Positions 11,385 through 27,222 of a DNA stretch of 64,000 nt are shown piece after piece. How positions within the stretch are numbered: the stretch's first letter is position 1; every line of letters begins with the position of its first letter. Position numbers and translations under genes: made by a program. The DNA comes from Escherichia coli (GTDB lineage: Bacteria; Pseudomonadota; Gammaproteobacteria; Enterobacterales; Enterobacteriaceae): NCBI GenBank assembly GCA_031701365.1, contig GCA_031701365.1_4118.1; one strand, written 5' to 3'. The notes under the pieces are model-generated. The model saw only the letters and a program-made list of their open reading frames with translations, made no database searches and was not told the DNA's origin.

Positions 11385-11533
11385 GGCGATTAGATTATTA
11401 CACAATTAATACAAATTATTTGTTGCGTAATATAAAATCCGATTACAAAATATGGATAAAGAACAGAGATAGTATGTGTTATGAATTTTATTTAGATTAT
11501 GCCATCAAACGCTTTTTAAGAGAAGAACATTAA
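11372..11533 (+). CDS. hypothetical mini-protein (53 aa, below track cutoff)
   Basis: Read by hand: ATG 11372 after AAGGAAAGGAG SD; MERLGRLDYYTINTNYLLRN...; TAATG overlap with the next ORF at 11533. Confidence 0.45.
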   Translation: MERLGRLDYYTINTNYLLRNIKSDYKIWIKNRDSMCYEFYLDYAIKRFLREEH

Positions 11534-11733: not shown

Positions 11734-11741
11734 GGCGAATT

Positions 11742-12287: not shown

Positions 12288-12588
12288 AATGATGTATACC
12301 CCAGATATGATTTATGTTGAATTAGAAGATGATGACGATGGGTGGAATTTGATTTATTCAAGAAGTTCAGGTTGGTACATGGCACATTTAAATGATTCGA
12401 TAGTTACAGATTATTTTGTAGATTTCAATACATTATCCGATGAAGAATTGTTCCAACAGCAATTAGTAATTGACACGGGTGGTTATGATGTTTTATTATT
12501 AAAAAAGATACAGAAAGCTGTTATTGATTTTAAGCCCAAGATGTTGCAAAGGAAATATTATGACCTCGAAGTACCGTACCAGCAATGA
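12277..12588 (+). CDS. family-B protein (short form)
   Basis: AAGGA SD; motif SDEELFQQQLVID. Confidence 0.8.
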   Translation: MKYKMMYTPDMIYVELEDDDDGWNLIYSRSSGWYMAHLNDSIVTDYFVDFNTLSDEELFQQQLVIDTGGYDVLLLKKIQKAVIDFKPKMLQRKYYDLEVPYQQ

Positions 12589-13126
12589 AATTCAGTACAC
12601 CTACGCTAATGCAATCATTATGGGACAAAAGTTAGCTTGTATTGTTGCAGCCTTATATAATGCCCAGAAATATCACAAGCGTCATTTCCACAAATGTATT
12701 GGTATTATTCCATCGAAGTACAATACATATATTGCGTGCACGAGTCATTTTGATAAACGATTCAATACACCTGATACCCCAAATGCCAGTAGTGTTATTG
12801 GTCTTTTGGATTTCGCACCTGGTGCTGTTATTGGAAAGAATGATTTAGAGTACGCATGGTATAATAAAAATGCACCGTTAGTAATGGTAAAATATGATAC
12901 AGAAACGAACAAAACAATAGAGTACAATACATATAAATCAGAGGAAGAATTTTTCCAAGGTTCATTGCTTGTGCCAGTGCGTTTGTTGTTTTATAATGTC
13001 CTTATTAGTACAGTACACAATAGTCCATTACACAAGAATCACAAAATTAATTTCAATTTTTGTGCTTATGCGATTGATGGTGTGTATGAGTGTTTAATGG
13101 AGGTATTGAGTTATGAAGCTGAATAA
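12560..13126 (+). CDS. family-B protein (long form)
   Basis: Track ORF 12524 trimmed to ATG 12560 after AAGGA SD; motif SEEEFFQGSLLVP. Confidence 0.75.
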   Translation: MTSKYRTSNEIQYTYANAIIMGQKLACIVAALYNAQKYHKRHFHKCIGIIPSKYNTYIACTSHFDKRFNTPDTPNASSVIGLLDFAPGAVIGKNDLEYAWYNKNAPLVMVKYDTETNKTIEYNTYKSEEEFFQGSLLVPVRLLFYNVLISTVHNSPLHKNHKINFNFCAYAIDGVYECLMEVLSYEAE

Positions 13127-13454
13127 TACATTTGATATTAATAAGTTAAGAGAATGGTTTTATAGTATTGAAATTGAAGCCATCCCGTATCATAGATATG
13201 AACAATATAATTTAACCAGTATTGATATCAGTGAGTTGTACGCGTATTATCAAAGTGCATTAGAGATGCATAAGTTATTTTTGAGTACAGATTTTGTTCT
13301 AAATTACAATTTTGAGGAATTTAATAATTATAATTTAGTACAGAAATATGTAGTAGCAAAGTATATGTACCTTCAAGGAATTACAAGTAATTTGGAATTC
13401 AATACAGTCCTTGCTTTAGTTGAGGTAATTTTATGCAGTACATGTATGATTTAG
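13113..13454 (+). CDS. hypothetical protein (113 aa)
   Basis: GGAGG SD; no family motif. Confidence 0.65.
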   Translation: MKLNNTFDINKLREWFYSIEIEAIPYHRYEQYNLTSIDISELYAYYQSALEMHKLFLSTDFVLNYNFEEFNNYNLVQKYVVAKYMYLQGITSNLEFNTVLALVEVILCSTCMI

Positions 13455-13939
13455 AGTTTAGTTTAGATGCTGCCTTTAAATTTGTTCACAAGATAGAAAC
13501 AATATACAGTACATTATGTGCAATAAAATCAGTAACAGAAGAGCTTGATGTTGGTGAAAAATATCAGGTATGGAATAATACATTTCTAAACAAAGAACGT
13601 TGCTCTACGGGGTTTAATATTTTAACATTTAATCCCAGCAATTGTTACCCAGAGAAGCATGAACGTTATCCGAATGACGACATGTGGTTTGATTACACAA
13701 AAGATGGTGATATGTCATCCCTTGTAGTTCCTGATGATTTTAATGCCGAAGATTTAACGGAAGAGTGGTGGTTTCAACAGAATTTAGTACACGATGATAT
13801 TGATTTATTTTTTTATGTAGTATTTAAAATGCTTTACCACAACAATATATTAAAAGATAGTGTGTTTTTTTCATGTCTATATATTGATGATTTGTACAAT
13901 GAAATCCAAATCAACATACCCAGAACGCCTGTATCGTAA
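13433..13939 (+). CDS. family-B protein (long form)
   Basis: Motif TEEWWFQQNLVHD. Confidence 0.8.
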   Translation: MQYMYDLEFSLDAAFKFVHKIETIYSTLCAIKSVTEELDVGEKYQVWNNTFLNKERCSTGFNILTFNPSNCYPEKHERYPNDDMWFDYTKDGDMSSLVVPDDFNAEDLTEEWWFQQNLVHDDIDLFFYVVFKMLYHNNILKDSVFFSCLYIDDLYNEIQINIPRTPVS

Positions 13940-13964
13940 GATATGGGCTTTTTTCGTTTTGGTA

Positions 13965-13993
13965 TTGACAAAGAAGTGCAAAGCTGTTATCAT
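13965..13993 (+). promoter_or_regulatory. sigma70-type promoter inside the B array
   Basis: -35 TTGACA 13965-13970, 17-nt spacer, -10 TATCAT 13988-13993; preceded by a T-rich tract. Confidence 0.55.
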
Positions 13994-14021
13994 GTGTAAT
14001 CATTTTAAAGGAGAACATATA

Positions 14022-14534
14022 GTGAGTTTCATAATCCCAAGTACATACGAAGATGCATCAAGTGCAGTTCATAAGATTCATTATATTTTTAATTTAATTA
14101 TTAGATCTGCAAAAATTAAAATGTATGCACCTCTTGTGACAAATAATCGAAATGAAGAAATTTTTATTAGCACAGACAAAATTATTTTTCCATATTTCAA
14201 TGAAGATAGATTGTGGTTCATACATTTAGCTGCATTACAAAAATATAAGATGTCAATTCGTAATAATTTGGATATACCGTTATATCATCCTGATATTGGA
14301 GAGGATGAATATTTTCAGTACAGTACAGTACACCGCCATGAAGATATCTTTGTTGCTATGCTTATTGCTAAATTGAATACCGTTGATTTGGAGCAGTACA
14401 AATACAATAATAAATCATGTAAGATCATAATCCCTGCATTCATAGCTCTTTATGATTATGTGGTGCATAACAAAAAAGATGATACATATGCTTTCAATGA
14501 AGAGTATTTGAATTTTTTTAAGGAGAACATATGA
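14022..14534 (+). CDS. family-B protein (long form)
   Basis: Track ORF 13860 runs through the promoter; trimmed to GTG 14022, 8 nt after AAAGGAG SD; motif GEDEYFQYSTVHR. Confidence 0.7.
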   Translation: MSFIIPSTYEDASSAVHKIHYIFNLIIRSAKIKMYAPLVTNNRNEEIFISTDKIIFPYFNEDRLWFIHLAALQKYKMSIRNNLDIPLYHPDIGEDEYFQYSTVHRHEDIFVAMLIAKLNTVDLEQYKYNNKSCKIIIPAFIALYDYVVHNKKDDTYAFNEEYLNFFKENI

Positions 14535-15058
14535 GCAGTGAAGTGCTGAAATCAATGACATTCAATGAAATTGGTACATTTAAAGATAAGATCATTGATT
14601 GCATTGAATACATGATTTGTAGTAATATCGAAAGTATCGAGATATTTAACAAGACAAATCGCTCTTACCATATGATGTACATTGCAAACAATAATGGTAT
14701 CATTCCATTTATTTCGGATAGTACAATATGGTACGCATGTGATACGAAAAAAACCACAATAGGTTTACATTCATTTGAGACACATTATGATCTAATTATT
14801 CCTGAACATTGTATGCAAGAAGAAGAATATTTTCAAATGCAATGTATACATTCACCATTAGTGTTGTTTAGTTTATATATTATACCTTATATCACCAAAT
14901 GTGTTCATGAGAATAAAGCTCCGTGGAATCATGAATTTGTATCGTTGAAGTTATTGTATAATGTATTAGTAGAATATTATGATTACAGGCACAATGGTAC
15001 AATCAGTGATGTATGGGATTTTGAATCGCTAAGGGTGAAAACATACACAGGTGAATGA
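14531..15058 (+). CDS. family-B protein (long form)
   Basis: ATGA overlap; motif QEEEYFQMQCIHS. Confidence 0.8.
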   Translation: MSSEVLKSMTFNEIGTFKDKIIDCIEYMICSNIESIEIFNKTNRSYHMMYIANNNGIIPFISDSTIWYACDTKKTTIGLHSFETHYDLIIPEHCMQEEEYFQMQCIHSPLVLFSLYIIPYITKCVHENKAPWNHEFVSLKLLYNVLVEYYDYRHNGTISDVWDFESLRVKTYTGE

Positions 15059-15059
15059 T

Positions 15060-15674
15060 ATGACCAGAATTAAAATGTATGATTTGATGCAGTACAGTAA
15101 AATTGCCATTCCAGTGCTTAATAAAGTGCTGGATGCATTCATTGCCAAATACCCTGAGAATTCAGTGTTATGTATTCCATTTAGTGTTCCAGATAAAGAT
15201 GATATATTCCAAGTGAATGTCAGTACACGTGGTATTACATTGCAGCAGAAATACATGGATACGGAATATTATGGAATAAAGTTGGATTCAGTACAGGGTT
15301 CAAAATCAGCCTATGATTTTTTTGTTCCTAATAACATCGAGTCATGGGAAACAAACATTTCAAAGAAAGATGAAAATGATGTTCCTATTAGTGGTGTGTT
15401 CAACAATAAAGTTTTTTATTATTACGAAACCGACAAATTCCCTGAAGAGTTATATTACAATTCAGAAATGAATGAAGATGTAGATGCATTCATGTTTCAA
15501 TTATCTTTAGTACATGATATCATTGATGTTCAAGAGTTAAGAGCAGAAATCAATTTAGCTAAAGAGTTATCGGACATGCTGCCACCGTTTAGTATGCTTT
15601 TTTGTGAAGGAGGTTATTTTTCAAAAGAAGTGTTTGAACATTTCGTAGATGTTGTAAAAGGGTTGGATATATAG
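15060..15674 (+). CDS. family-B protein (long form)
   Basis: First in-frame ATG at 15060 (track GTG 15051); motif DVDAFMFQLSLVHD. Confidence 0.75.
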   Translation: MTRIKMYDLMQYSKIAIPVLNKVLDAFIAKYPENSVLCIPFSVPDKDDIFQVNVSTRGITLQQKYMDTEYYGIKLDSVQGSKSAYDFFVPNNIESWETNISKKDENDVPISGVFNNKVFYYYETDKFPEELYYNSEMNEDVDAFMFQLSLVHDIIDVQELRAEINLAKELSDMLPPFSMLFCEGGYFSKEVFEHFVDVVKGLDI

Positions 15675-15675
15675 T

Positions 15676-15870
15676 ATGCTTATAATTGATATTAAACAAA
15701 AATACCGTAAGTTTGATTGGTTCACCGATAGTTTCCAGCTTGAATTATTACATATGAATATCAGTGAAACATTATGTGCAGAAACACAAGATGAATTTGA
15801 TGATAGAGTGATGAACATAGTAATGCTTTCTTGCTTTAAACATTTTGGTTATTTTTTCGGGCAGAATTGA
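15676..15870 (+). CDS. family-B remnant (64 aa, lacks the N-terminal two-thirds)
   Basis: Motif-like TDSFQLELLH sits near the N-terminus, so this looks like a truncated copy. Confidence 0.5.
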   Translation: MLIIDIKQKYRKFDWFTDSFQLELLHMNISETLCAETQDEFDDRVMNIVMLSCFKHFGYFFGQN

Positions 15871-15877
15871 GGTAAAA

Positions 15878-16393
15878 ATGCATCAACACAAGCATCATTC
15901 ATATGATTTTGCAATTAACATTATGAAGTTTATTCGAGCGTTGGAGGATGGGAAGCTTAGTCATAAGTACAGGAAAGAGGGTAACAATTGGTTCAGAAAT
16001 GATTCCGAGTTCAGTTGTCATAAAATCGTGTATAGTAATCAGTACAGTGCCAATTACCTACAAGATGTAGTGATGTGTTTTGAATACGTGTTGCAGTTCA
16101 GGGGTTCAATCCAAGATGAGTTGATGGAGAACATGTACATCCGATACCTTCCAATGCTCAAAGATGAAAATGTATTATTAAATTCAATATATCAACGAGT
16201 TCGTGAAATAGAGTGCAGGGATATATTAGATACAGAAGAATCGTATTTCCAGCAATCCCTGATTTATTCACCTGATTTATTACAGGTACATAATTTGTTT
16301 AATACATTACGTCAGAACATCAGTACAGACATATTTTTGTCATTATCGGATTATGATACATTTGTCAAAGATTTAGAGGAAATAGGTTTATGA
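15878..16393 (+). CDS. family-B protein (long form)
   Basis: Track ORF 15845 trimmed to ATG 15878 after GAGGT SD; motif TEESYFQQSLIYS. Confidence 0.75.
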   Translation: MHQHKHHSYDFAINIMKFIRALEDGKLSHKYRKEGNNWFRNDSEFSCHKIVYSNQYSANYLQDVVMCFEYVLQFRGSIQDELMENMYIRYLPMLKDENVLLNSIYQRVREIECRDILDTEESYFQQSLIYSPDLLQVHNLFNTLRQNISTDIFLSLSDYDTFVKDLEEIGL

Positions 16394-16734
16394 GTAGATT
16401 TTCAGTTTATATAGTAAACGTCAGTAAAGATGGTAGTTTAATTGAATTTGATGTAGTTGATAACAATGATAATTCATATGGTATTAAGGTACAGGACAAT
16501 GATGTGCAGTTCAGTACAAGAACAAATTTTGAAAATCCAGTCCAAGTTCCTAATTTCATAGAAGATGAAGCAGCACGTTTCCAATACGAAACGGCATATG
16601 ACAATGTACATATGCATATTATTATGCAAACGAGTTTAGTTCAATTAGTTCCTTTGTTCAGACAAAATATATATGTACATGAAGTGTCGATTAATGGCAT
16701 TCAAAGTTCCGTTTTGTTCGATACAAATATGTAA
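16390..16734 (+). CDS. family-B protein (short form)
   Basis: ATGA overlap; motif DEAARFQYETAYD. Confidence 0.8.
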   Translation: MSRFSVYIVNVSKDGSLIEFDVVDNNDNSYGIKVQDNDVQFSTRTNFENPVQVPNFIEDEAARFQYETAYDNVHMHIIMQTSLVQLVPLFRQNIYVHEVSINGIQSSVLFDTNM

Positions 16735-16744
16735 GGAAAGTACA

Positions 16745-17296
16745 ATGAGTTCAATGAGTTTATTAGATACATTAGAAAAAGACAGAAGTGCAATTAAGCG
16801 TTTAAAAGAGCAAGTACAAAAGATTGTATACAACGTTGATAAGTTTGAGGTTCCCGGAAGATTTGGTGATATTTCCCATACGGAGATCAAATCCCTTAAG
16901 TCAGATTTGTTGATTAAAAATAAAAATGGGTTGATTTTAGTTTTGAGTTCAGATATGATGGGGGCAACACATAGTTATAATGCCGTATCGGTGCGTTCCG
17001 AGTGTGAAGGTATATATCTATCACAGGGTTTCAATAGCGAGACACAGGTTTGTTTTTGTGATGCAGTACATGACCCTATGAAGTTCACGAGAAGTGAAGC
17101 CCAAGCGTTATTAGAGCTATCAGACGAGAGTTTGTTTCAGTACAGTACAATGTATGACAATGATAAGATTCGTTGTATGTACGCTGTAAAGCATTATACA
17201 CAGGAGTTTTCTGGATTTGCATACCTTTTAGTTAGAACCAATACCAGATATATTGATATGTTAGAAGATTACATCGATAAAGTTGTTAATGTATGA
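16745..17296 (+). CDS. family-B protein (long form)
   Basis: Track ORF 16673 trimmed to ATG 16745 after AAGGA SD; motif SDESLFQYSTMYD. Confidence 0.75.
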   Translation: MSSMSLLDTLEKDRSAIKRLKEQVQKIVYNVDKFEVPGRFGDISHTEIKSLKSDLLIKNKNGLILVLSSDMMGATHSYNAVSVRSECEGIYLSQGFNSETQVCFCDAVHDPMKFTRSEAQALLELSDESLFQYSTMYDNDKIRCMYAVKHYTQEFSGFAYLLVRTNTRYIDMLEDYIDKVVNV

Positions 17297-17308
17297 TTTT
17301 GTGATGGG

Positions 17309-17488
17309 ATGATGCTAATGAAAGAGTTATTTGAAGATCAGTTCAATACATATGTGGATAATATTCTTTATTCCAGTCGTGCCAGTCAACGAGGAAATCG
17401 TGCTTACAATATTGATTACCTATTAGTGGTGCTGAGTTCACAGTACACCAATGCGGTACAAAGGGTTTATTATGAAAAGTGCAAGTAA
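17309..17488 (+). CDS. hypothetical mini-protein (59 aa, below track cutoff)
   Basis: Read by hand: MMLMKELFEDQFNTYVDNILYSS...; fills an otherwise empty 150-bp gap. Confidence 0.4.
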   Translation: MMLMKELFEDQFNTYVDNILYSSRASQRGNRAYNIDYLLVVLSSQYTNAVQRVYYEKCK

Positions 17489-17681
17489 TAGTGATATTGC
17501 AAAGGAGAAGTTTAAGTGCAGTTTAGATTACGGTTTAAATAATTTTCTTACATGCACAATGTACAGGGATGATGATTATGAACAATCCGTAATTTCGTTG
17601 CACAGATATTTCGAAATAATTTACGCAAGATATCTTAGAAGGTTAGATGGGATAGGGGATTGGAATTATGATTACGTTTGA
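17472..17681 (+). CDS. hypothetical protein (69 aa)
   Basis: Track ORF 17451 trimmed to ATG 17472 (MKSASNS) after AAGGG. Confidence 0.5.
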   Translation: MKSASNSDIAKEKFKCSLDYGLNNFLTCTMYRDDDYEQSVISLHRYFEIIYARYLRRLDGIGDWNYDYV

Positions 17682-17892
17682 AGAGCCGGAAGTGGTATAT
17701 TGCTTTAGTGTGAAAGGTTTTGAATACATGATGGATTCGATTTTGAAGGATACATATTTGGTTCAGATTGCAGTTGCACATAATGCAGATAATGCATTAC
17801 AGCGAGTATTGAATATATACGAGAGGACGAGTCGAAGGCTTTGTGCAATGAAAAGGATTGAAGAAATAAAGGTTTCTAGGCTGAATAAATAG
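17668..17892 (+). CDS. hypothetical protein (74 aa)
   Basis: GGGGATTGGA upstream; last gene before a 200-bp non-coding gap. Confidence 0.6.
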   Translation: MITFEEPEVVYCFSVKGFEYMMDSILKDTYLVQIAVAHNADNALQRVLNIYERTSRRLCAMKRIEEIKVSRLNK

Positions 17893-18090
17893 AGACGTTT
17901 CATTTTGACAGGCCGCTGGAGGGGGTCAAAAAAATTTCCGCTGAAAAACATGCTAAGGTATATGTTTAATATAAAGTTTTATATTGTGTTTTTCAGAGTA
18001 CAGTTCATGTTTCCTTAAACAAAAAATACCCCGCCACCGAACGTGCTCTTTATATTGGAGTTTACCTTATTAATTATAGTAGAGATTGAG

Positions 18091-18468
18091 ATGGAAATAA
18101 AATATAATGAATTTTGTGCAAGGACATGGATGTACACTGGTGAGTTAGTTACGCACTCTAACTTATACAAGGGTGATTTAAACTACGCTAGGGACAAGAT
18201 TTTAAAGTACTGGAATGCTGACTTTTATTTGATGGATTTTAGTACTGGGTTTAGGGGTAAAGCAACCGAGATGTTGGACTATACAGTACTTGATGATGCT
18301 GCACTGTTTCAGGCGGCATTAGTATTTGATAAGAAGTACATCTGTACATTAGAAGAGATGATTGAATTACAGCGTAGAATTAAATGTATTCACAGGGAAT
18401 GTATAGATATCTGGTGCAGTACTGGTGAAGATGATTTTTGTAATCATTTCAATCTAGGGGAAGAGTGA
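18091..18468 (+). CDS. family-B protein (short form, triplet copy 1)
   Basis: Track ORF 18043 trimmed to ATG 18091; DDAALFQAALVFDKKYICTLEEM. Confidence 0.75.
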   Translation: MEIKYNEFCARTWMYTGELVTHSNLYKGDLNYARDKILKYWNADFYLMDFSTGFRGKATEMLDYTVLDDAALFQAALVFDKKYICTLEEMIELQRRIKCIHRECIDIWCSTGEDDFCNHFNLGEE

Positions 18469-18824
18469 TGGAATTTGATTTTTTAATATCAGTACATTCT
18501 TTTAAGCACAGTTTTCAGTACTTTTGTAATTTAAACAAAGGTGATTTAATGCACAGTGCGAATGAGTATATTCATTACACTCAGGGTAAATTTACATTCA
18601 TTGATTACAGTTCATTACAGTATCCACACCAAGATATGCCGGACTATACATTAATGGATACCGCAGAACTATTCCAAGAATCATTAGTATTTGATAAGAA
18701 GTACATATGTACCTTTGAAGAAGTAATTGCTATACAAAATGAAATGAAGAAGTATGCTGCTTTGAATAAACCCAATGCAAGTATTAATCAAGAATACAAA
18801 TTCAATTTAGGAATTCAAGAATGA
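18465..18824 (+). CDS. family-B protein (short form, triplet copy 2)
   Basis: ATGA overlap; DTAELFQESLVFDKKYICTFEEV. Confidence 0.8.
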   Translation: MMEFDFLISVHSFKHSFQYFCNLNKGDLMHSANEYIHYTQGKFTFIDYSSLQYPHQDMPDYTLMDTAELFQESLVFDKKYICTFEEVIAIQNEMKKYAALNKPNASINQEYKFNLGIQE

Positions 18825-19180
18825 CATATGATTATTCTATGTACTATTATAAGTTACCTAAAGGATGGGACTTGTGCTGTAATCTTATTAAGGGAGACTC
18901 GGAACATGAGTTGAGTTTATATATGCACTACAAAGATTCTTGTTTTAAATTTATTCATGTATTACATGATGGCTATGACTATGAATCTGAGAGTCTCATA
19001 GATTATACAGTACTGGACGATGGTGAACTATTTCAGGAAGCATTAGTGTTTGATAAGAATAAGTACTCCTGTACATTTGAAGAAATGGTTTCTTTGCAAA
19101 ATGAAATGAAGAGATTTGAAAAAGAAAACGTATTTAATCCATCCCCATCAAGAACGAATAATTATTATTTCAATATATGA
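18821..19180 (+). CDS. family-B protein (short form, triplet copy 3)
   Basis: ATGA overlap; DDGELFQEALVFDKNKYSCTFEEM. Confidence 0.8.
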   Translation: MTYDYSMYYYKLPKGWDLCCNLIKGDSEHELSLYMHYKDSCFKFIHVLHDGYDYESESLIDYTVLDDGELFQEALVFDKNKYSCTFEEMVSLQNEMKRFEKENVFNPSPSRTNNYYFNI

Positions 19181-19189
19181 GATTATAAA

Positions 19190-19660
19190 ATGACATTACA
19201 GAGTTCATTGGAAAAAGCAAAGAAGATTCATGAGTACATGAATATGGCAAAAGAAGGTTCAGTTTACGGTGTTTTCAAAGACACAAGTACTCAATATTAT
19301 GTACCGGATAACCTCCTTTATAATGACTGCTCAGATACAGAAACGTGCGTACTGGATACCGACCCTAATGATTATGAATGCTTCATTAATATGCATAATG
19401 AGTACATGGTCTATATTAATGATTCAGATACTATCTACAGTACTGACAGCGATTCCAATGACATTATAATTCCGAGTGAAGTACTGGAAGGTCCGTGGGA
19501 TAGTGAAGAGTATTACTTCCAACAAAGTACTGTATACGATAATGAAGTACTTGATGTTATTATAATTATGTGGTACTTTAAAAGTATTGGTTCTGGGAAC
19601 TTCTTTTTCGATTACAAATACGTAAAGAAAACTGTAGATAACGGTATTAACAGGGGTTAA
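19190..19660 (+). CDS. family-B protein (long form, quintet copy 1)
   Basis: N-terminus MTLQSSLEKAKKIHEY; VLEGPWDSEEYYFQQSTVYD; WYFK. Confidence 0.85.
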   Translation: MTLQSSLEKAKKIHEYMNMAKEGSVYGVFKDTSTQYYVPDNLLYNDCSDTETCVLDTDPNDYECFINMHNEYMVYINDSDTIYSTDSDSNDIIIPSEVLEGPWDSEEYYFQQSTVYDNEVLDVIIIMWYFKSIGSGNFFFDYKYVKKTVDNGINRG

Positions 19661-19661
19661 A

Positions 19662-20132
19662 ATGAGTTTAGAAAGAGCATTAGAGATTGCGAAGTTAATT
19701 GATTTATGCAGCAAAGAAATTGTATCAAATTGTCTCAATGGATATCTATTCAAGGAAGGTAAATCATATTGTCGAATGATATACGATGACAGTAGTGAAT
19801 ATATCCATATGTATGAAGAAAACTTAGATGATTCTGACATAGTACTCACAGGATGTGATGTTAATTTGGAAGATAATTACATGTACTTCTGCCGTGATGC
19901 TGATATTTTAATCCAAGATTCATTAATTCAAACAGGTGCACCAGAGGTATATCTTCCGTATTCAGTACTGGATAATAACTGGGGTAGTGAAGATTACTAT
20001 TTCCAGCAGAGTACTATATATAATGAAGATATACTTGACAAACTTGTTATTTCTTGGTACTTTCATAACACGGATTATAGTAGCTTCTACATAGACTTGG
20101 ATCTACTAAGAGTACTTAAAGAGGATATATGA
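19662..20132 (+). CDS. family-B protein (long form, quintet copy 2)
   Basis: MSLERALEIAK; NNWGSEDYYFQQSTIYN; WYFH. Confidence 0.85.
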   Translation: MSLERALEIAKLIDLCSKEIVSNCLNGYLFKEGKSYCRMIYDDSSEYIHMYEENLDDSDIVLTGCDVNLEDNYMYFCRDADILIQDSLIQTGAPEVYLPYSVLDNNWGSEDYYFQQSTIYNEDILDKLVISWYFHNTDYSSFYIDLDLLRVLKEDI

Positions 20133-20569
20133 GTTTAGAAAGAGCACTAGAACTAGCCAACAAAATACATCAGTACCATGATAAAATAAAAAGTGGGTTC
20201 TATGCTGATAAAGTACATGCATATGGGAATGAATATTATCTCACAGGAGTAAAGAGATACTCTAATGATATTTTACTTATGGGTCATGATAAAGACTATA
20301 CTATACAGTACTCTTCATGTAGTCAATATACTAGTTTTATGGTATATATTCCTGGTACTAAGATTACTTTTGACACATCAAATACACCTGTTGACTTCGG
20401 GGTACTTGATGGCCCGTGGGGTACTGAAGAGTATTACTTCCAACAGAGTCTCATTTTTAACCAAGAAATGCTTGATTCCTTGGTTGTGTTGTGGTACTTT
20501 AAGGAATTGAATTTTGAACCATTCTTTCTTGACTGGGGTTCATGTGAGTATTTAAGTTCAGGGGAATAA
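20129..20569 (+). CDS. family-B protein (long form, quintet copy 3)
   Basis: MSLERALELAN; GPWGTEEYYFQQSLIFN; WYFK. Confidence 0.85.
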   Translation: MSLERALELANKIHQYHDKIKSGFYADKVHAYGNEYYLTGVKRYSNDILLMGHDKDYTIQYSSCSQYTSFMVYIPGTKITFDTSNTPVDFGVLDGPWGTEEYYFQQSLIFNQEMLDSLVVLWYFKELNFEPFFLDWGSCEYLSSGE

Positions 20570-20571
20570 TA

Positions 20572-21060
20572 ATGTCATTACAAAGTGCATTGAAAGAAGC
20601 AAAGAAGATTCATGAGTACATGATTATGGTACAGGAAGGTTCAGTACCAGGTGTATACAAAACATCAGATACGGAATTCTTCGTTAAGGATAGAGATGAT
20701 TATGACGAATCAGAGGTATGTGCAGAAACATTAGTACTGCACACTGATACTGGTGACAGTGATAACTGTGAATATCATATGTACAACCAGTACATTAGTT
20801 ATTGCCGTAATGAAGATATTACCATCTACAACACAGATAGTGATGCTGATGACACTATCATTCCTTATTCAGTACTGGAAGGTCAGTGGGATAGTGAAGA
20901 ATATTACTTCCAGAATAGTACTATCTACAATGAAGAAGAACTGGATGTTATTGTGATTATGTGGTATTTCAAAAGTATTGACTCCAGTAGTTTCTATTTT
21001 GATTATGAATATGTAGAGAATACGATAGGAGAAGGTAATGTCATTACAAAGTGCTCTTGA
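20572..21060 (+). CDS. family-B protein (long form, quintet copy 4)
   Basis: MSLQSALKEAKKIHEY; GQWDSEEYYFQNSTIYN; WYFK. Confidence 0.85.
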   Translation: MSLQSALKEAKKIHEYMIMVQEGSVPGVYKTSDTEFFVKDRDDYDESEVCAETLVLHTDTGDSDNCEYHMYNQYISYCRNEDITIYNTDSDADDTIIPYSVLEGQWDSEEYYFQNSTIYNEEELDVIVIMWYFKSIDSSSFYFDYEYVENTIGEGNVITKCS

Positions 21061-21490
21061 AAAAGCAAAAGAACTACATGGATACGTTGAAGATATAAAG
21101 GCAGAAAAGTTCAAAGAAGTGTACAAAGCCGAGAACGGTAACTACTACAAAGATGAAATGTATAATAACTCCGTTGGAGTAAGGGTTATTCTTGGGTTGA
21201 ATTCCAATAGCCCAGTGTCGTATTCGGAATACAATAGAGATGCAGAATTCATTAGTTATGTTGAAAATGGTAGCATTCGTTTTATTAATAGACAAAAACC
21301 ATTAACATTGAATTGTGAAGTACTGAATGGTCCGTGGAATAGTGAAGAGTATTACTTCCAAAACAGTACTGTATATGATGATGAAGTACTTGAAGCATTA
21401 GTTATTATGTGGTACTTCAAGAGTGTTAGCTGTCCTCGATTTTATTTGGATTTCGAAGAACTTCGTAAAGATCCAGAAGGTATAGAATGA
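21038..21490 (+). CDS. family-B protein (long form, quintet copy 5)
   Basis: MSLQSALEKAKELHGY; GPWNSEEYYFQNSTVYD; WYFK. Confidence 0.85.
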   Translation: MSLQSALEKAKELHGYVEDIKAEKFKEVYKAENGNYYKDEMYNNSVGVRVILGLNSNSPVSYSEYNRDAEFISYVENGSIRFINRQKPLTLNCEVLNGPWNSEEYYFQNSTVYDDEVLEALVIMWYFKSVSCPRFYLDFEELRKDPEGIE

Positions 21491-21801
21491 AAAACTTATT
21501 CAGTGTTCAGTACGTCCCTGGTGAAATTGGTTTATTATATCTATTTGACCATGATAATTCATTATTACTAGTAGTGAAGAAATGCCAAGCTAGTTCGTTT
21601 GTTGAATACATTCACGATAGTGAATACATTCCTGATTTCCTAGAGTGTGATTATCACGATGAACATGAATCATTTATTTTTCAGGAATCACTAGTATGGG
21701 ATAAATCGATCAACTTCTTTACGTTAATTGAATTACAAAAGCAGGTGAAGTATTATTGGGATTACTTAATTACACAGGATTACATTGAGATTGAAACATA
21801 A
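21487..21801 (+). CDS. family-B protein (short form)
   Basis: ATGA overlap; motif HESFIFQESLVWD. Confidence 0.8.
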   Translation: MKNLFSVQYVPGEIGLLYLFDHDNSLLLVVKKCQASSFVEYIHDSEYIPDFLECDYHDEHESFIFQESLVWDKSINFFTLIELQKQVKYYWDYLITQDYIEIET

Positions 21802-22109
21802 TGACAAAAAATGAATTTGATTCACTTTGTACGGTTTATAATTCATTGACAGAAATACCTGACTTTATTAATTACATTTCAGCGTTAAATCATATTATGC
21901 ATAGTTTTGAACAATCGTTTGAAGAGAAATATGCAGGTAGAAAAGTTCTATGTCATATGTCAATGTACTTGGGAGATGGTGAGCCTTACACTACCAGTAC
22001 TACATGTGAAATAAAAAAATATAATATATTATTGGGCACAATAGAATTCACAGTATCCAATGGTGGTAGTTATATGTACTTTAGAGATGGAGTGGTTGAA
22101 TTATTATGA
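21801..22109 (+). CDS. family-C small protein inside the B array
   Basis: TAATG overlap; EEKYAGRKVLCHM followed by a beta-rich C-terminal half, as in the 53407 and 53664 genes. Confidence 0.7.
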   Translation: MTKNEFDSLCTVYNSLTEIPDFINYISALNHIMHSFEQSFEEKYAGRKVLCHMSMYLGDGEPYTTSTTCEIKKYNILLGTIEFTVSNGGSYMYFRDGVVELL

Positions 22110-22555
22110 GTTACGAAAGTGCAATCAAGAAAGCAAATGATATTCTAAAAGTTGTTCAGTTCTTCAAAGAAAATCCTGAATACCTAGATGATGAAAACCA
22201 TGATCACGATGAGAGATTGAGAAGAAAAATTGTCTCTTTATTTGACACTAATGCGGATAATTATAGTCTAATTGAGTTAGCATACGATTATATTTCATTG
22301 AACCGAAACGGACATTTAGTTAATATAGAAAGACATGCGAGTGAAGAATCTTTTAAAATTTCAGACATTTTATCCCTGAGTACTGAAGAAGGGTACTTCC
22401 AGGGTAGTACTGTTTATGAACAAGGAACACTTGACAATCTATGCACATTCAGTGTAATATATCAGAAATCAGTACTGGATGTATTTTATCTTGACACTGC
22501 TGAACTGGATACACTAATCAATTTTGTTACTACTGAAGAGGCCACATTTGAGTGA
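22106..22555 (+). CDS. family-B protein (long form)
   Basis: MSYESAIKKANDIL; motif TEEGYFQGSTVYE, which fits the TEV consensus E-x-x-Y-x-Q-G. Confidence 0.8.
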   Translation: MSYESAIKKANDILKVVQFFKENPEYLDDENHDHDERLRRKIVSLFDTNADNYSLIELAYDYISLNRNGHLVNIERHASEESFKISDILSLSTEEGYFQGSTVYEQGTLDNLCTFSVIYQKSVLDVFYLDTAELDTLINFVTTEEATFE

Positions 22556-23088
22556 TGAAAGTTAACATCAATGACTTTGATGCATTACAAGATTTATCAA
22601 AAAAGATTCGCATAATCGTACCAGTACTCAAAAAATGCAGTACTGGTTTAATTGATCCTAGTACTGTTGTTAATGAGAAGTACAATTTTCATCGTGTATT
22701 ACAGGGTACAGGTGCATTTCAGAAGTGTGATGTACGTGAGAAACACGTAATTGATACATCATTGTTTTCTATTGGTGCACCTGTGTCGAATAATTCTATT
22801 TTCCTGGATAACGCAGGAAATATTCAACAATTAACATTTAAGAAAAGGAAAAAGAACAATAACATTGGTGTGTACGCGATGAAGTGGGGTCAACCTGATT
22901 TGAAGCGTGAAATTCACATCCCTAAGTACAATTACAATGCATTTGACGAACAGTGTTTTCAACTATCGTGTACTGACCCTGACTATGCAATCATTCAGTT
23001 CTATATGGAATTGCAGATAGCATTTAACAGTAATTTATATATTAACTTGTTGGCAATGAACATCGATGAAGTATTCAAAAACATTTAA
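22552..23088 (+). CDS. family-B protein (long form, divergent)
   Basis: ATGA overlap; motif FDEQCFQLSCTDP. Confidence 0.75.
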   Translation: MMKVNINDFDALQDLSKKIRIIVPVLKKCSTGLIDPSTVVNEKYNFHRVLQGTGAFQKCDVREKHVIDTSLFSIGAPVSNNSIFLDNAGNIQQLTFKKRKKNNNIGVYAMKWGQPDLKREIHIPKYNYNAFDEQCFQLSCTDPDYAIIQFYMELQIAFNSNLYINLLAMNIDEVFKNI

Positions 23089-23284
23089 TCGAATTGAATA
23101 CATGAGAACTGTGAGTGCAGTGTGGGATATATGGTTCACTACTAAACCAAAAATGGATTACCATGACTTTAAGCTCTTGTTCTTCGTTGGCTCTAACAAA
23201 CAGGATGTTGCAATGAAGGGTTATATTCAGCACTTACAGGAACTAATTCAGAAGAGGGTTAATGAAAATAATAGACCAAGATGA
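23066..23284 (+). CDS. family-A small protein embedded in the B array
   Basis: Motif LFFVGSNKQDVAM. Confidence 0.7.
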   Translation: MKYSKTFNRIEYMRTVSAVWDIWFTTKPKMDYHDFKLLFFVGSNKQDVAMKGYIQHLQELIQKRVNENNRPR

Positions 23285-23453
23285 TATTGCTAAACTATTC
23301 AATATATATTCTACTAGAATGATGCAAACCGACTCATATGGTACGGAATTCAAAGAGTTGAAAGTACTGATGTACTTGGGAACCCAATATCAGGAACAAG
23401 TTATTTTGGAATATATTAATTCGTTGAAGAAGGATATCCGTTATGTACGATGA
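23262..23453 (+). CDS. family-A small protein embedded in the B array
   Basis: Motif LMYLGTQYQEQVI. Confidence 0.75.
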   Translation: MKIIDQDDIAKLFNIYSTRMMQTDSYGTEFKELKVLMYLGTQYQEQVILEYINSLKKDIRYVR

Positions 23454-24003
23454 TTTAGATCTTGCGTTTGAACGTATGGTAATTTTAATGCAATGTGCAG
23501 AAATGCATGAAACAATCCGTCGCACCAAAGGGATTGAATATACAAGTAAACTATTCTCATACGAAAGTCGTCGAGGGATGGATCATTTTTACTGCACTGA
23601 TTGTTCAAAGTTTTCAGTACTGAAATATTATCATCCTACTGTTTCCAATAATAGTTTAATATCCACATATGACGGTGATCTGTTTAGTGTAATGTATGAC
23701 ACATTACATCCATCAATTTCAATCTATAAAGATTGCGATAGTAGTTTATCGTATATAATTGAAGATTACTTATCTCCTAATACTGAAGAGAATATTTTTC
23801 AGAACAGTGTGTTGCATGATGAATTAAGTATAAAATGCATCTATATGTTCAATAAGTTAAAAGAGTACGCCGATAATAATTACTTCATTGATGATTTAGC
23901 GGTATTGTCTGTTTCCGTTTTTAATACAAATGATATTGATATGAAATACTATAATGAGATTTATAAAGTACATCATATGTATAAGGAACTATTATGTCAA
24001 TAA
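23443..24003 (+). CDS. family-B protein (long form)
   Basis: Motif TEENIFQNSVLHD. Confidence 0.8.
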   Translation: MYDDLDLAFERMVILMQCAEMHETIRRTKGIEYTSKLFSYESRRGMDHFYCTDCSKFSVLKYYHPTVSNNSLISTYDGDLFSVMYDTLHPSISIYKDCDSSLSYIIEDYLSPNTEENIFQNSVLHDELSIKCIYMFNKLKEYADNNYFIDDLAVLSVSVFNTNDIDMKYYNEIYKVHHMYKELLCQ

Positions 24004-24596
24004 ATGCAAATAAATGTTGTAGTGCAGATGTGCATTTGTTTTTTAAGAAATTGGCAAATGATATTATATATATGCAGGAAATGATTTATCACAAACGAGC
24101 GGATTTAGAAAAAGCATTAGTACAGTTCTCATTTATGCTTGATGGTGATATATTTCTAGAGAGTGATGCATTGCGAATAGTATTAGACAAAAATGCTAAA
24201 AGATTTTTATTTCATGTAGATAATAAATTATGTTCCTCCGTATGTCGTACTTTTTATAATCGTGATTCGGACTTATATCAATTCCTTTATTCTAAAGGTG
24301 CAGTAGAAGCATCATATGGTGATGGTTATGCCCTAGGAAAGAGTATTCCATTTATGAAATCATTTAAAATAGAACACATCAGTACTGATGAAGATGCAAT
24401 GTTCACAAATGATATAACTATGGGACGTGAAGATGCAATGCGATATATTACAAATTCTATGTATACATTCTTTCAACGAACAGAATTTGATAATGTATAT
24501 ATATCAAATGTAAATATTTTCAATGACCTGTGTCAGTACTTGAGAAGTGTTTGTAATTTCGATGAAAGCTATTGTAAGCTATATACTGAGGTATAA
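23994..24596 (+). CDS. family-B protein (long form, degenerate motif)
   Basis: Motif position reads TDEDAMFTNDITMG. Confidence 0.65.
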   Translation: MSINANKCCSADVHLFFKKLANDIIYMQEMIYHKRADLEKALVQFSFMLDGDIFLESDALRIVLDKNAKRFLFHVDNKLCSSVCRTFYNRDSDLYQFLYSKGAVEASYGDGYALGKSIPFMKSFKIEHISTDEDAMFTNDITMGREDAMRYITNSMYTFFQRTEFDNVYISNVNIFNDLCQYLRSVCNFDESYCKLYTEV

Positions 24597-24601
24597 AACA
24601 A

Positions 24602-24964
24602 ATGAACACATTAAGTATTACATACTATACAACTAAAAAATTAGTTACTTGTTTAATATCTTTGAAGACAAACCATGATGATATGTTTGATATGGCTGCA
24701 TATGAATTAGAATTATCAGAAGATGGCTTCAAGAGCTATGAAGTATATAGCTATGTCCGTGAAGATGTAATTGACACTACACTAATGCAAGAGGATGAGT
24801 TATTCCAAGAAAGTTTAGTATGGGATAATAAGTACGATTGTAACTTTGATTTCTTATGTTTAATCCAGAAAGAAATGAAAAGAATCTTTGATAATTATCC
24901 AATCAAACGTTTCAGTACTGCACCTGAGCAATATAAAAGGATTATATTCACCTATGAAGATTGA
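24602..24964 (+). CDS. family-B protein (short form)
   Basis: Motif QEDELFQESLVWD. Confidence 0.8.
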   Translation: MNTLSITYYTTKKLVTCLISLKTNHDDMFDMAAYELELSEDGFKSYEVYSYVREDVIDTTLMQEDELFQESLVWDNKYDCNFDFLCLIQKEMKRIFDNYPIKRFSTAPEQYKRIIFTYED

Positions 24965-25331
24965 ATTTGAAGTTATTACATATAGTATAGGTGATGGTAT
25001 CCGTTGCTATGTACAAGCAAGGCATATGGTTCCTGATGATAAACTGTCACCAAAAAGCTTCTGTATCACACAAGATCTCTTAGATATCAACGGAGAGAAC
25101 AAGTACATATATTATCTTACTAAGGGTTATTGTAGTACACGTGGTTTTAATATTGTAGCTGTTTCTAGAGATGAAATTGATGATTTAACTGAGTACGGGG
25201 AAGAAGAGATGTTCCAGTACAGTACTGTTTTTAATGAACTGGATGTGTTTCTGTTACGAAAAATACAACACATTATGCAAGAATGTTTGCATCATAAGAG
25301 AGGTATGGTATGCGACGTGAATCTGAATTAG
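24954..25331 (+). CDS. family-B protein (short form)
   Basis: Track ORF 24888 trimmed to ATG 24954 (MKIEFEV); motif GEEEMFQYSTVFN. Confidence 0.7.
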   Translation: MKIEFEVITYSIGDGIRCYVQARHMVPDDKLSPKSFCITQDLLDINGENKYIYYLTKGYCSTRGFNIVAVSRDEIDDLTEYGEEEMFQYSTVFNELDVFLLRKIQHIMQECLHHKRGMVCDVNLN

Positions 25332-25651
25332 TTAAAGTAATGTACGCTACTCATATTAAACTACTACTTGTTAAATTTGATTATAATAAAAAACATAATG
25401 ATTTCTATACTTTAATTCGTGATGAAAATACATTCTCCTTGCGATGCAACAATATACCCTTGAAGATAAATGATTTTACTTCACTTGACGAGGGGGAATT
25501 ATTTCAAGAATCATTAGTTTTTAATAGTAATATAAAAATTGATATAGAAGTTATTAAAAAATACCAGATTCTATTGAACAAAATTATGAATTGTTATCCA
25601 TGTGAAATAGGTGGTCATATGCAGTTCAAATCAAAAATGTATGAATTATGA
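25310..25651 (+). CDS. family-B protein (short form)
   Basis: GAGAGG SD; motif DEGELFQESLVFN. Confidence 0.75.
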   Translation: MRRESELVKVMYATHIKLLLVKFDYNKKHNDFYTLIRDENTFSLRCNNIPLKINDFTSLDEGELFQESLVFNSNIKIDIEVIKKYQILLNKIMNCYPCEIGGHMQFKSKMYEL

Positions 25652-25658
25652 GGTTTAT

Positions 25659-26195
25659 ATGTTAGATAAAAAAATGAACTCTGGAACCCAATATAATCAT
25701 CTTAAGTTGGATACATTCGAATCAGCTATCAGTACAGCACAAGATATAATTGATATTATCAAGTTCATTAAAGAAGATAAGTTCAAATGTTTGAAAATAC
25801 TAAATCGTTCAATGTACCGTGATAAAAATATTCATGTATCAGTACGTAGACCGAAAGATCAAGAAAGTGGGAGAGATTTCTATAACAACAGTGAGCAGTT
25901 CGAATGTGAATATGATCCAGAATTTAGAGGTGGTTTCATGTGTTACTGTATGAAGGATACCTCACACATTGAGATACGTTCATCGAAAGGTGGCATACGT
26001 ACATTAGAGTTTATTGATATAGTTTTAAATCAGGAATACTACTTTCAACTATCATTATTGTTTCCTGCATACGATTTAGGAGTTCTATTCATGTATAAGT
26101 ACTTTCATGAGCACTGGAATGAAGACTTCTATCTGGACTTAGAAGATTACCACTTAGTTTGGAAAGAAATGGTAAAACTTCGCAACCCATCTTGA
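25659..26195 (+). CDS. family-B protein (long form)
   Basis: Track ORF 25611 trimmed to ATG 25659 after GAGG SD; FESAISTAQDII; motif NQEYYFQLSLLFP; FYLDL. Confidence 0.75.
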   Translation: MLDKKMNSGTQYNHLKLDTFESAISTAQDIIDIIKFIKEDKFKCLKILNRSMYRDKNIHVSVRRPKDQESGRDFYNNSEQFECEYDPEFRGGFMCYCMKDTSHIEIRSSKGGIRTLEFIDIVLNQEYYFQLSLLFPAYDLGVLFMYKYFHEHWNEDFYLDLEDYHLVWKEMVKLRNPS

Positions 26196-26221
26196 CACCC
26201 TCCGATTCTTTGTGATATAAT
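26192..26221 (+). promoter_or_regulatory. TRTG-extended -10 promoter
   Basis: -35 TTGACA 26192-26197, 18-nt spacer ending TGTGA, -10 TATAAT 26216-26221. Confidence 0.65.
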
Positions 26222-26254
26222 CTCTTTATATTAATTGTAAAGGGTTATATCACA

Positions 26255-26731
26255 ATGTCCAAAGACCTATCATTTAGCAATGCACAAAAAATAGCAAAAG
26301 ACATTATCAGGGTTTATAAATTCCTTACAAATGTTACTGAAGATTTTTCCGTAGGCAAACATACAGTCAAAAAACGAAATGGATACCTTTCCTTTATGGA
26401 TGGGTTACTCTATAGTTCAGATGAATCAACTTGTAGTATTAGAGTGCTTGATGAAGTACCAAGTGGTGATTTTATTTCATACCATTTCCCAAGTTCAGAT
26501 AATTTCAAATACTACAATCATCATCTTATAAATGAAGGATTTGATACGGCTGAAATTAACACTGAAGAAGAGTTCTTCCAGTACAGTACTGTGTATCCAG
26601 AGAGGATTGTTTTCAGTTCAGTGATTTACACTGCCCTTAAAAATGAACTAAATTCAGATAGTGATCATTTCTACTTGGACCTGAACAATATCGATTGTAT
26701 TATTGAGTACCTGGAGAAAAATGGTTTATGA
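26255..26731 (+). CDS. family-B protein (long form)
   Basis: FSNAQKIAKDII; motif TEEEFFQYSTVYP; FYLDL. Confidence 0.8.
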   Translation: MSKDLSFSNAQKIAKDIIRVYKFLTNVTEDFSVGKHTVKKRNGYLSFMDGLLYSSDESTCSIRVLDEVPSGDFISYHFPSSDNFKYYNHHLINEGFDTAEINTEEEFFQYSTVYPERIVFSSVIYTALKNELNSDSDHFYLDLNNIDCIIEYLEKNGL

Positions 26732-27222
26732 TTACTACAGAATATGATTACGATGGTGTTTTAGAATTTGCAGACAATATCTATCGCATTGCAAAGGAGT
26801 TCAGAAGTCCTGACCCATTTGGTGGTATGTTCGAATACGATGAGTTTAGTTCATCCAAAGGAAGACTTGCGTTTACTAATGTAAGAGGTAATCAAATCTA
26901 TGCCGAGTACTTTGATGACAATGACTTTCATTACAAAGCCGGATACATTTCATATTGCCCTGGGTCTGATTTGAAGATTAATATTGACAATTATAGAGAA
27001 GCAGTATTTGTTAAGTATGATGATTTAGTGTTCATGTCAGAGGAAATGTACTTTCAGGGTTCTTGTATTCATGATGTAAAAGTACTTAATGCTATGTTAT
27101 TTTATGGTGCACTACTTCATCATTACAAATACAAACAACGATTCTTTTTAGATTTAGTAGTATACTATAAATGCGTGGATTATTTGAATGCAAAATACGA
27201 CAACAATTCAGTACATGACTGA
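26728..27222 (+). CDS. family-B protein (long form)
   Basis: ATGA overlap; motif SEEMYFQGSCIHD; FFLDL. Confidence 0.8.
   Translation: MITTEYDYDGVLEFADNIYRIAKEFRSPDPFGGMFEYDEFSSSKGRLAFTNVRGNQIYAEYFDDNDFHYKAGYISYCPGSDLKINIDNYREAVFVKYDDLVFMSEEMYFQGSCIHDVKVLNAMLFYGALLHHYKYKQRFFLDLVVYYKCVDYLNAKYDNNSVHD

Follow-up and report, generated by a model that had tools for sequence, protein, structure and literature searches.

The MGF360/505 genes of African swine fever virus (ASFV) and the poxvirus host-range families evolve by birth and death: diverged paralogs lie in tandem, orthologs can be traced between strains, and both loss and gain are lineage-specific. A role in host interaction is established for these families. 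In the 'genomic accordion' of the poxvirus K3L gene, said to have been described by Elde et al. in 2012, near-identical copies are gained and lost as whole units, reportedly in response to acute selection. Arrays of uncharacterised paralogs account for much of the size of jumbo phages. Such arrays are also among published examples (PMC7247149), with ca. 10% paralogues in RaK2 (PMC3622015), 22 paralogous open reading frames (ORFs) in CBB (PMC5259590), and ca. 35 zinc-ribbon copies in phage G (PMC7824862, a broad survey of jumbo phages). The paralog arrays of these phages are noted in the literature only in passing, and the available portions of PMC7247149, PMC3622015, PMC5259590, and PMC7824862 do not define the FQ-motif family considered here, or its fold, age, or selection regime. 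The subject of this work is a region of a 64,000-nucleotide (nt) stretch of DNA (hereafter, the window; contig GCA_031701365.1_4118.1 of an Escherichia coli assembly) that contains eight adjoining genes of this family: three short forms (S1 to S3, the triplet) and five long forms (L1 to L5, the quintet). Like the jumbo-phage arrays in general, the region is a large co-oriented array of small paralogs, and it offers a clean example of how such arrays evolve. A sequence-only reading of the window had taken both groups for recent expansions that are still growing by tandem duplication under diversifying selection. We find that they are probably long-standing sub-families of a large multigene family found in RaK2/121Q-like jumbo phages, with each copy under purifying selection and with recombination between relatives.

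Positions 18000-21600 of the window were 96% identical (nt) to Escherichia phage 121Q and matched 36 phage records, all of them large (310-386 kb) genomes of E. coli or Salmonella phages; the matching records that carry a taxonomy line were assigned to Asteriusvirus (E. coli jumbo phages). The window is AT-rich (ca. 31-37% GC), and nearly all of its genes are on the + strand. The same genes are present in the same order, with 84-96% nt identity over the region, in 121Q (PBI_121Q_365 and 368-374), PBECO4, phAPEC6 (gp438c-gp447c), and other Asteriusvirus phages. All of these orthologs are annotated as hypothetical except gp447c of phAPEC6, the S1 ortholog (L002 1597-1974), which is labelled 'amidohydrolase 3'; the label has no Pfam or NCBIfam support in the S1 protein of the window and looks spurious. 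The discovery is a modest one: GenBank already lists these genes as hypothetical proteins, and arrays of paralogs have been noted before. The eight genes are as follows:

18091..18468, + strand: S1, short form, 125 amino acids (aa) from the ATG at 18091; the ORF opens at 18043, with an alternative ATG at 18130 behind AAGGA; phrog_15629, E 1.6e-58
18465..18824, + strand: S2, short form, 118 aa from the ATG at 18468, which overlaps the S1 stop codon; phrog_15629, E 1.7e-57
18821..19180, + strand: S3, short form, 119 aa; phrog_15629, E 1.6e-59
19190..19660, + strand: L1, long form, 156 aa; phrog_9317, E 2.8e-63
19662..20132, + strand: L2, long form, 156 aa; phrog_9317, E 1.1e-54
20129..20569, + strand: L3, long form, 146 aa; phrog_9317, E 8.4e-56
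20572..21060, + strand: L4, long form, 162 aa; phrog_9317, E 1.3e-65; AlphaFold model m1b61841c5c35
21038..21490, + strand: L5, long form, 150 aa, with a 23-nt overlap with the 3' end of L4; phrog_9317, E 5.7e-58

All eight ORFs lie on the + strand where the sequence-only reading had placed them. Full-length hidden Markov model matches assigned S1-S3 to phrog_15629 (ca. 118-121 of 121 profile positions) and L1-L5 to phrog_9317 (E 1e-54 to 1e-65). When 55 family members were compared with each other by BLASTP, the triplet (E 1e-16 to 1e-26) and the quintet (1e-16 to 1e-55) were the only tight clusters; the remaining pairs mostly matched at 1e-4 to 1e-6 or not at all, with the exception of g24602 against S2 and S3 (ca. 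1e-11 to 1e-12). The sub-clustering is therefore real and far beyond chance, and the members of each group are indeed closer to each other than to the rest of the family, as had been claimed. The consensus strings quoted for the two groups hold only approximately. LVFDKKYICT[LF]EE[MV]I fits S1 and S2, while S3 has LVFDKNKYSCTFEEMV instead; LQNEMK[KR] is exact in S3 only (S2 has IQNEMKK and S1 has LQRRIKC); [IV]MWYFKS fits only L1, L4, and L5; and one or two members fail each of the patterns that begin with MSL and VL.GPW. The proposed concentration of divergence in the middle of the genes was found in the quintet, where mean pairwise identity was 48% in the N-terminal helix, 20% in the beta region (the following ca. 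75 residues), and 49% in the C-terminal helices, but not in the triplet, where the N-terminal half was the variable part (22%) and the centre was the most conserved (60%).

To date the duplications, the homologous region was compared in 22 relatives, 19 close and three distant. Well-assembled ORFs were available for 18 of the close relatives; CMSTMSU (L003), whose ORFs are fragmented, probably by assembly frameshifts, was left out of codon analyses. Trees were built by neighbour joining with 200 bootstraps. Global identity between paralogs was 32-42% (aa) and 52-56% (nt) in the triplet, and 29-56% (aa) and 46-70% (nt) in the quintet. The proportion of synonymous differences (pS) between paralogs was 0.55-0.85, which corresponds to synonymous distances (dS) from 1.0 up to inestimable values, so that synonymous sites are saturated, or nearly so, between window paralogs. 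L1/L4, the youngest pair of the window, had a dS of ca. 1.0, versus 0.12-0.25 for L1-L3 orthologs compared between the window and phage A4. Each paralog formed an ortholog clade of its own, with bootstrap values of 98-100% for S1, S3, and L1-L5, and 80% for S2. Phage A4, a more distant relative, holds orthologs of L1, L2, and L3 (80-88% aa), and Turkey5 holds an ortholog of L2 (56%); the L3 clade with A4 included had 100% bootstrap, and the L2 clade with A4 and Turkey5 had 98%. Gene order was the same in the 18 close relatives with well-assembled ORFs. Since synonymous sites between paralogs are saturated and every paralog has its own ortholog clade, we conclude that the duplications predate the radiation of sequenced Asteriusvirus genomes and are older than the split of these phages. 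Local tandem duplication, as had been proposed, is most likely how the triplet and the quintet arose, given that their members adjoin and are mutual closest relatives. The proposed recency did not hold: near-identical adjoining copies with low synonymous divergence, the mark of a recent amplification, were not found among the window paralogs, which had 46-70% nt identity in the quintet, pS of 0.55-0.85, and dS of at least 1.0, and which fall into separate per-paralog clades.

Separate clades also bear on a different account of the similarity within each group, namely, that the copies date back as far as the other array genes and were partly homogenised by gene conversion between neighbours. 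Tracts of low synonymous divergence, revealed by sliding-window pS, are consistent with such concerted evolution. The first ca. 70 nt of L1 and L4 (19190-19260 and 20572-20645) are far more alike than the rest of both genes; other tracts were seen in the motif regions of L1/L5 and L3/L5, and in a 40-nt stretch of S1/S2 with 92.5% identity. The N-terminus of the L1 ortholog of A4 (MSLESALKEAKKIHEYM; L020 5001-5074) is closer to window L4 than to window L1, and A4_4 branches outside the L1+L4 clade. The likeness of the L1 and L4 5' ends may thus come from exchange between both paralogs. However, a permutation test of identical-codon runs in 13 pairs gave a minimum P of 0.0076, which was not significant after correction, and gene conversion between the paralogs is therefore treated here as unproven. 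Much of the local identity is accounted for by strong codon bias (40-73% of identical residues have identical codons), and members of a sub-family resemble each other from end to end, in length class and N-terminal architecture as well. The ortholog clades are cleanly separated, and there was therefore no genus-level homogenisation. We consider concerted evolution an improbable source of the two groups, and return to the reading that they are old sub-families with separately maintained members.

The ratio of nonsynonymous to synonymous divergence (dN/dS, or omega) between paralogs was dropped as a test of selection because of the saturation of synonymous sites, and orthologs were used instead. 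Codon alignments of each gene from 15-19 genomes, with 11-17 distinct haplotypes per gene, were analysed by counting methods only: the Nei-Gojobori procedure and parsimony counting on neighbour-joining trees. Pooled Nei-Gojobori pN/pS values were 0.43 for S1, 0.27 for S2, 0.33 for S3, 0.26 for L1, 0.30 for L2, 0.28 for L3, 0.10 for L4, and 0.39 for L5, and neighbouring array genes were similar (0.08-0.51). Tree-based parsimony counts gave an omega of 0.09-0.43 per gene. Across both methods, the ranges were 0.27-0.30 for S2, 0.26-0.33 for S3, 0.30-0.34 for L2, and 0.36-0.39 for L5; L4 (0.09-0.10) was the most constrained member. None of the codons with at least three nonsynonymous and no synonymous changes reached P < 0.05. 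In the beta region, which varies between paralogs, pooled omega was 0.29, versus 0.26 for the rest (Fisher P = 0.75); S2 is absent from the beta class, as the script matched an earlier 'FQ' in the S2 protein. Counting methods thus detected no dN/dS above 1, either overall or in the variable-region site class, and the claim of diversifying selection is not supported. The dN/dS comparison that had been suggested as a check gave values that are not close to 1, so that neutral decay is not seen, but showed no excess of omega either. Since omega is low in the beta region, the regions that distinguish the paralogs are themselves conserved. We conclude that each copy, its paralog-specific beta-sheet region included, is kept as a separate gene under purifying selection, and that the copies are therefore specialised, non-redundant genes rather than a currently diversifying set.

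What does change in the region was seen by comparing relatives gene by gene. Identity of the window to EC.P1 (nt) was 70% for the neighbouring gene U1 (16673-17296), 85% for S1, 96% for S2, 98% for S3, 98% for L1, 84% for L2, 91% for L3, 87% for L4, and 76% for L5. The window is a mosaic of alleles, with S1 100% identical (nt) to phAPEC6, and S2 89% identical to 121Q and 97% to PBECO4. Two discrete allele classes each were found in U1 (96-99% versus 61-62% aa), S3 (97-100% and 70-71% aa), L5 (91-97% versus 67-68% aa), and D1 (21487-21801), and the classes do not co-segregate between genes. This pattern is indicative of recombination with a diverged lineage, the breakpoints being close to gene boundaries, and, from the jumps in identity and the discrete classes together, allele exchange that proceeds roughly gene by gene is the dominant mode of change.

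The comparison of copy number among relatives, also suggested earlier, revealed that gene content does differ. In Turkey3, WPEC3, fEgEco12, and vB_Ec-M-J, L1 is replaced by a short form, Sy, and a 61-aa ORF. In phage A4, L1 is present together with orthologs of both Sy and the small ORF, which suggests differential loss from a larger ancestral set. S3 is absent from vB_Ec-M-J. We read the absence of L1 and S3 from these relatives as losses. Orthologs of S2 are present in all relatives, and those of S1 in 17 of 18, the exception being a read-through fusion in UE-S1 (L016 1503-2231). There, S1 and S2 are joined in frame in a single 242-aa ORF (...HFNLGERVMEFDF...), which reflects either a real loss of the stop codon or a sequencing error.

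One further difference is the presence, between S1 and S2, of a cassette that the window does not have and that is carried by 121Q, slurp01, and phAPEC6, among others. Its boundaries coincide with the following segment, which was located by blastn against relatives and by self-comparisons:

18466..18547, + strand: 82-bp 5' segment of S2, single copy in the window, direct repeat flanking the Sx cassette in carriers

The extra gene of the cassette, Sx, is carried by 13 phage records (121Q being counted twice, under two accessions); six carriers were fetched, and five of these (121Q, slurp01, phAPEC6, BF17, and Turkey3) were tested for flanking repeats. In all five, an extra segment of ca. 530-590 bp was found, in which a truncated duplicate of the S2 5' end is joined to foreign sequence and followed by the short-form gene Sx. 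The foreign sequence entered the 5' end of S2, and its insertion gave rise to the 82-bp repeat. The bounding direct repeats of 82 bp are 97.6% identical in phAPEC6, slurp01, and BF17, and 84% identical in 121Q. The left junction is at S2 codon 27, between NKGDL and IMD. In the tree, Sx branches outside the entire phrog_15629 clade, so that it did not arise by copying of an adjacent gene. Over 523 nt, the foreign sequence is colinear (92.5% identity) with the 3' end of A4_364 followed by all of A4_365; both genes are located ca. 5 kb downstream in phage A4, at the array position of window g24602. The Sx genes of phAPEC6 and Turkey3 show 100% identity despite differences of 7-11% in the flanking genes, and phages with and without Sx occur in all three clades of the local tree. 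Sx is thus an ectopic capture by illegitimate recombination that was subsequently spread by homologous recombination.

These data bear directly on the proposal that the array is undergoing recent, ongoing tandem amplification, with middle segments driven apart by diversifying selection, in the manner of an 'accordion'. Members do adjoin and are mutual closest relatives, paralogs diverge far more in the beta region than in the helices, and gene number varies among relatives. In phage EJP2, moreover, three of the four short forms in tandem group with each other (95% bootstrap), with a dS of 0.51 and an omega of 0.60 for the youngest pair; lineage-specific duplication has thus happened in the short-form sub-family, in this phage. 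For the time span of the sequenced Asteriusvirus genomes, the proposal is nevertheless contradicted by the saturation of synonymous sites between window paralogs, by the one-to-one orthologs of all eight genes in an order conserved across the genus, and by ortholog omega values of 0.09-0.43 with no excess in the beta region. No duplicated unit or young tandem duplicate was found in the 22 relatives examined, and the only traceable gain is the ectopic insertion of Sx, a distant family member from another locus; the view of an array still growing by tandem duplication is accordingly not supported. Gain or loss of a whole repeat unit was likewise not seen among the relatives, in which variation consists of the Sx insertion, the replacement of L1 by Sy and the small ORF, and the loss of S3. 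The region resembles the K3L accordion in that copy number changes within a viral gene array, but its copies share 46-70% nt identity and its unit changes are deletions or insertions of a different gene. We regard recent amplification as very unlikely.

Least probable of all is neutral decay, in which the genes would be remnants or pseudogenes left by a past expansion, dispensable and subject to drift and loss: L1 is missing from four relatives and S3 from one, S1 and S2 are fused in UE-S1, and the omega of L1 against its A4 ortholog is 0.78 (P = 0.41 versus 1), but the eight ORFs are intact in the window and in nearly all 18 well-assembled relatives, omega lies between 0.09 and 0.43, the genes have retained their overlaps and spacing, and family alignments yield confident AlphaFold models, so that decay is contradicted for seven of the eight genes. 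The sequence-only reading had named two outcomes that would speak against it, a dN/dS uniformly about 1 and an identical copy number in related genomes; neither was observed, and it is therefore corrected here rather than simply refuted. With its separate ortholog clades, its lineage-specific losses, and the EJP2 cluster, the region behaves as a birth-and-death multigene family and is an ordinary, well-resolved example of an old viral family of this kind. The array pattern is like that of the ASFV and poxvirus families; there is no sequence or fold relationship to them, and a host-interaction role for the FQ family is one that we only infer.

The family to which the eight genes belong extends well beyond them. 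A motif scan of all + strand ORFs in the window delimited two features:

9597..37395, + strand: B array, ca. 50 co-oriented, tightly packed small genes (100-225 aa) with the motif [DE][DE]x[YFLM]FQxS[TL][IV]
48484-49062, + strand: outlying B-array member with the same motif

In an alignment of 40 family sequences, F113 and Q114 never vary, and at least 90% of the sequences have S116. An FQ-motif superfamily can thus be recognised by F-Q followed by x-S/T, with acidic residues before it and a shared C-terminal helical core, and its ca. 50 members in the window form a tandem co-oriented array of the jumbo-phage type. Among the eight proteins, [FY]Q.[STQ] is present in six; S1 (FQAA) and S3 (FQEA) are both without the Ser/Thr. 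Profiles of the long and short forms, which have some sequences in common, matched each other by hhalign with 98% probability. The two PHROG families and the related phrog_13866, 12674, and 34017 have no function assigned in PHROG, and their link through the FQ motif and shared core is derived here and is not recorded there. A4_348 (L020 2474-3010), an array member of phage A4, is labelled 'DNA ligase' in GenBank, and this label also looks spurious.

A search of 1.8 billion proteins with the family profile returned 127 clusters at 50% identity, all of them small. One is an A4-like member (94% aa to A4) that matches RaK2-like Klebsiella phages at 31% identity. Foldseek comparison with viral predicted structures (BFVD) yielded uncharacterised proteins of 121Q, RaK2, Serratia phage BF, and GAP32; the RaK2 matches H6X4L9, H6X4M2, and H6X4M3 have neighbouring accession numbers. 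A 109-kb contig (33% GC) of metagenome 3300007747 (Joint Genome Institute, JGI) carries 21 tandem genes with the EExxFQxS motif within 13 kb (L023 3075-16022), so that the FQ family extends beyond the cultured phages of E. coli and Klebsiella. Some adjoining genes of this array are mutual closest relatives (best pair 44%, others 25-37%); young duplicates were not found among the 21. The contig itself seems to come from an unrelated-looking jumbo phage.

The structure of one long and one short form was predicted by AlphaFold2. The L4 model, obtained from the family alignment, had a mean predicted local distance difference test score (pLDDT) of 86 and a predicted template modelling score (pTM) of 0.82, and consisted of an N-terminal helix (residues 3-22), seven beta-strands (28-97), helices 99-103 and 109-115, a helix at 121-135, a strand, and a last helix. 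The FQ pair is at the end of predicted helix 109-115. The S2 model (pLDDT 83, pTM 0.80) lacks the N-terminal helix and shares with L4 the beta-sheet, the motif helix, the long helix, and the C-terminal strand. Family proteins are thus predicted to have a helical core with the invariant FQ motif, packed against a variable antiparallel beta-sheet, to which long forms add an N-terminal helix. In these models, the sheet is formed by the paralog-variable segment, and the helices by the conserved ones. No convincing match to the AlphaFold models was found in the PDB. The likeness of EEYYFQ followed by S to ENLYFQ followed by S, i.e., to a tobacco etch virus (TEV)/3C protease-type site (E-x-x-Y-x-Q followed by S or G), was considered and rejected as a coincidence: the motif in L4 lies in and beside predicted helix 109-115, in blocks with a mean pLDDT of 95-97 rather than in an exposed, flexible segment, and the position that follows Q varies and is often taken up by a large residue (Q, N, E, Y, L, M, K).

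Hints as to expression and function come from the surroundings of the genes and from bulk properties of the proteins. One non-coding feature adjoins the triplet:

17893..18090, no strand assigned: conserved non-coding spacer, ca. 195 bp, upstream of S1; 91-97% nt identity in 18 relatives

The spacer is more conserved than the surrounding genes, and in A4 it is 95.8% identical over 166 nt, though flanking genes there are replaced or diverged, with another short form downstream. An ORF of 108-141 bp is annotated within the spacer in some records, and an Rfam search produced no credible match. The spacer is probably a promoter or regulatory element. A sigma-70 consensus site at 26192-26221 has 12 of 12 matches and an extended -10 TG; further perfect or near-perfect sites are at 9974-10002 and 13965-13993, the latter preceded by a terminator-like hairpin (13927-13948). 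These sites suggest that the array is transcribed by host RNA polymerase in several units. The proteins are acidic, with a median isoelectric point (pI) of 4.8 in the family and a pI of ca. 4.05 for each of L1, L2, and L4, and no gp4xx product, those of this region included, other than Gp44 is listed in the virion mass-spectrometry table of phAPEC6. As a low-confidence working model, based on the acidity, the absence from the virion proteome of a close relative, and the sigma-70-like sites in the block, the family may encode early, intracellular, non-structural proteins of host interaction. A more far-reaching version must be put tentatively: the FQ family (ca. 50 copies per genome) could possibly be a previously undescribed effector scaffold of RaK2/121Q-like jumbo phages, in which a conserved helical 'handle' presents a paralog-specific sheet that neutralises distinct host or defence targets, with the repertoire reshuffled among co-infecting phages by whole-gene capture into ectopic positions, as with Sx.

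The history that we favour runs as follows. Two old sub-families, most likely the products of local tandem duplication, were in place before the sequenced Asteriusvirus phages diverged, and each copy has since been maintained separately under purifying selection. At present, the region changes mainly through recombination between co-circulating relatives, i.e., by whole-gene allele replacement, by illegitimate insertion of a cassette taken from another array position, and by deletions, for which a direct repeat is available at the Sx site, as well as by L1 replacement and S3 loss in some lineages. Individual cases of allele replacement, cassette insertion, L1 replacement, and S3 loss are documented above. 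On a shared scaffold, each protein would bind a different host or defence target through its variable sheet.

Several points weigh against this account. Part of the history of L1 and L4 may involve exchange between both paralogs, and the single-copy state of the window at S2 is either the uninserted state or the result of a precise deletion via the repeat. As regards selection, analysis by gene thirds showed raised omega in the middle of L2 (0.69) and of L5 (0.53) only, both below 1. The omega of L1, 0.26 within the close group, rises to the value indistinguishable from 1 that was given above when the A4 ortholog is used, and L1 is under the weakest constraint of the eight and the most dispensable. 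Counting methods applied to recombining sequences could overlook positive selection that is weak, episodic, or confined to single sites. With respect to function, Pfam, NCBIfam, and PADLOC searches gave no credible match to family proteins, and a sequence-profile search of the PDB gave no significant match, with nothing above noise. Promoter-like sites were not enriched over shuffled sequences (94 found versus 120 expected), and a literature search found no Asteriusvirus transcriptome or expression data.

With these points taken into account, the locus is best regarded as an old repertoire of individually conserved genes that are traded by recombination, including one traceable capture from another array position. 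The experimental question is thereby shifted from the 'newest copy' to the distinct target of each conserved paralog. L4, with its omega of 0.09, is the best candidate for functional work, and L1 the most dispensable.

Two features of the neighbouring DNA complete the description. The gene D2 (21801-22109) encodes 102 aa without the FQ motif. In SP27, Ecwhy_1, ELP-22, EC.P1, WPEC3, Turkey3, fEgEco12, and vB_Ec-M-J it is replaced by a gene of 147-157 aa that is distantly related to the next gene, D3 (25-27% aa), which is another cassette replacement. A second array of tiny ORFs (70-90 aa) occupies positions 3700-9600 (e.g., 6684-6941, 7639-7881, and 8092-8322) and 23262-23453 of the window; several of them have the motif LLGT[NQ]YQ.[QT]Y and apparently constitute a separate paralog family.

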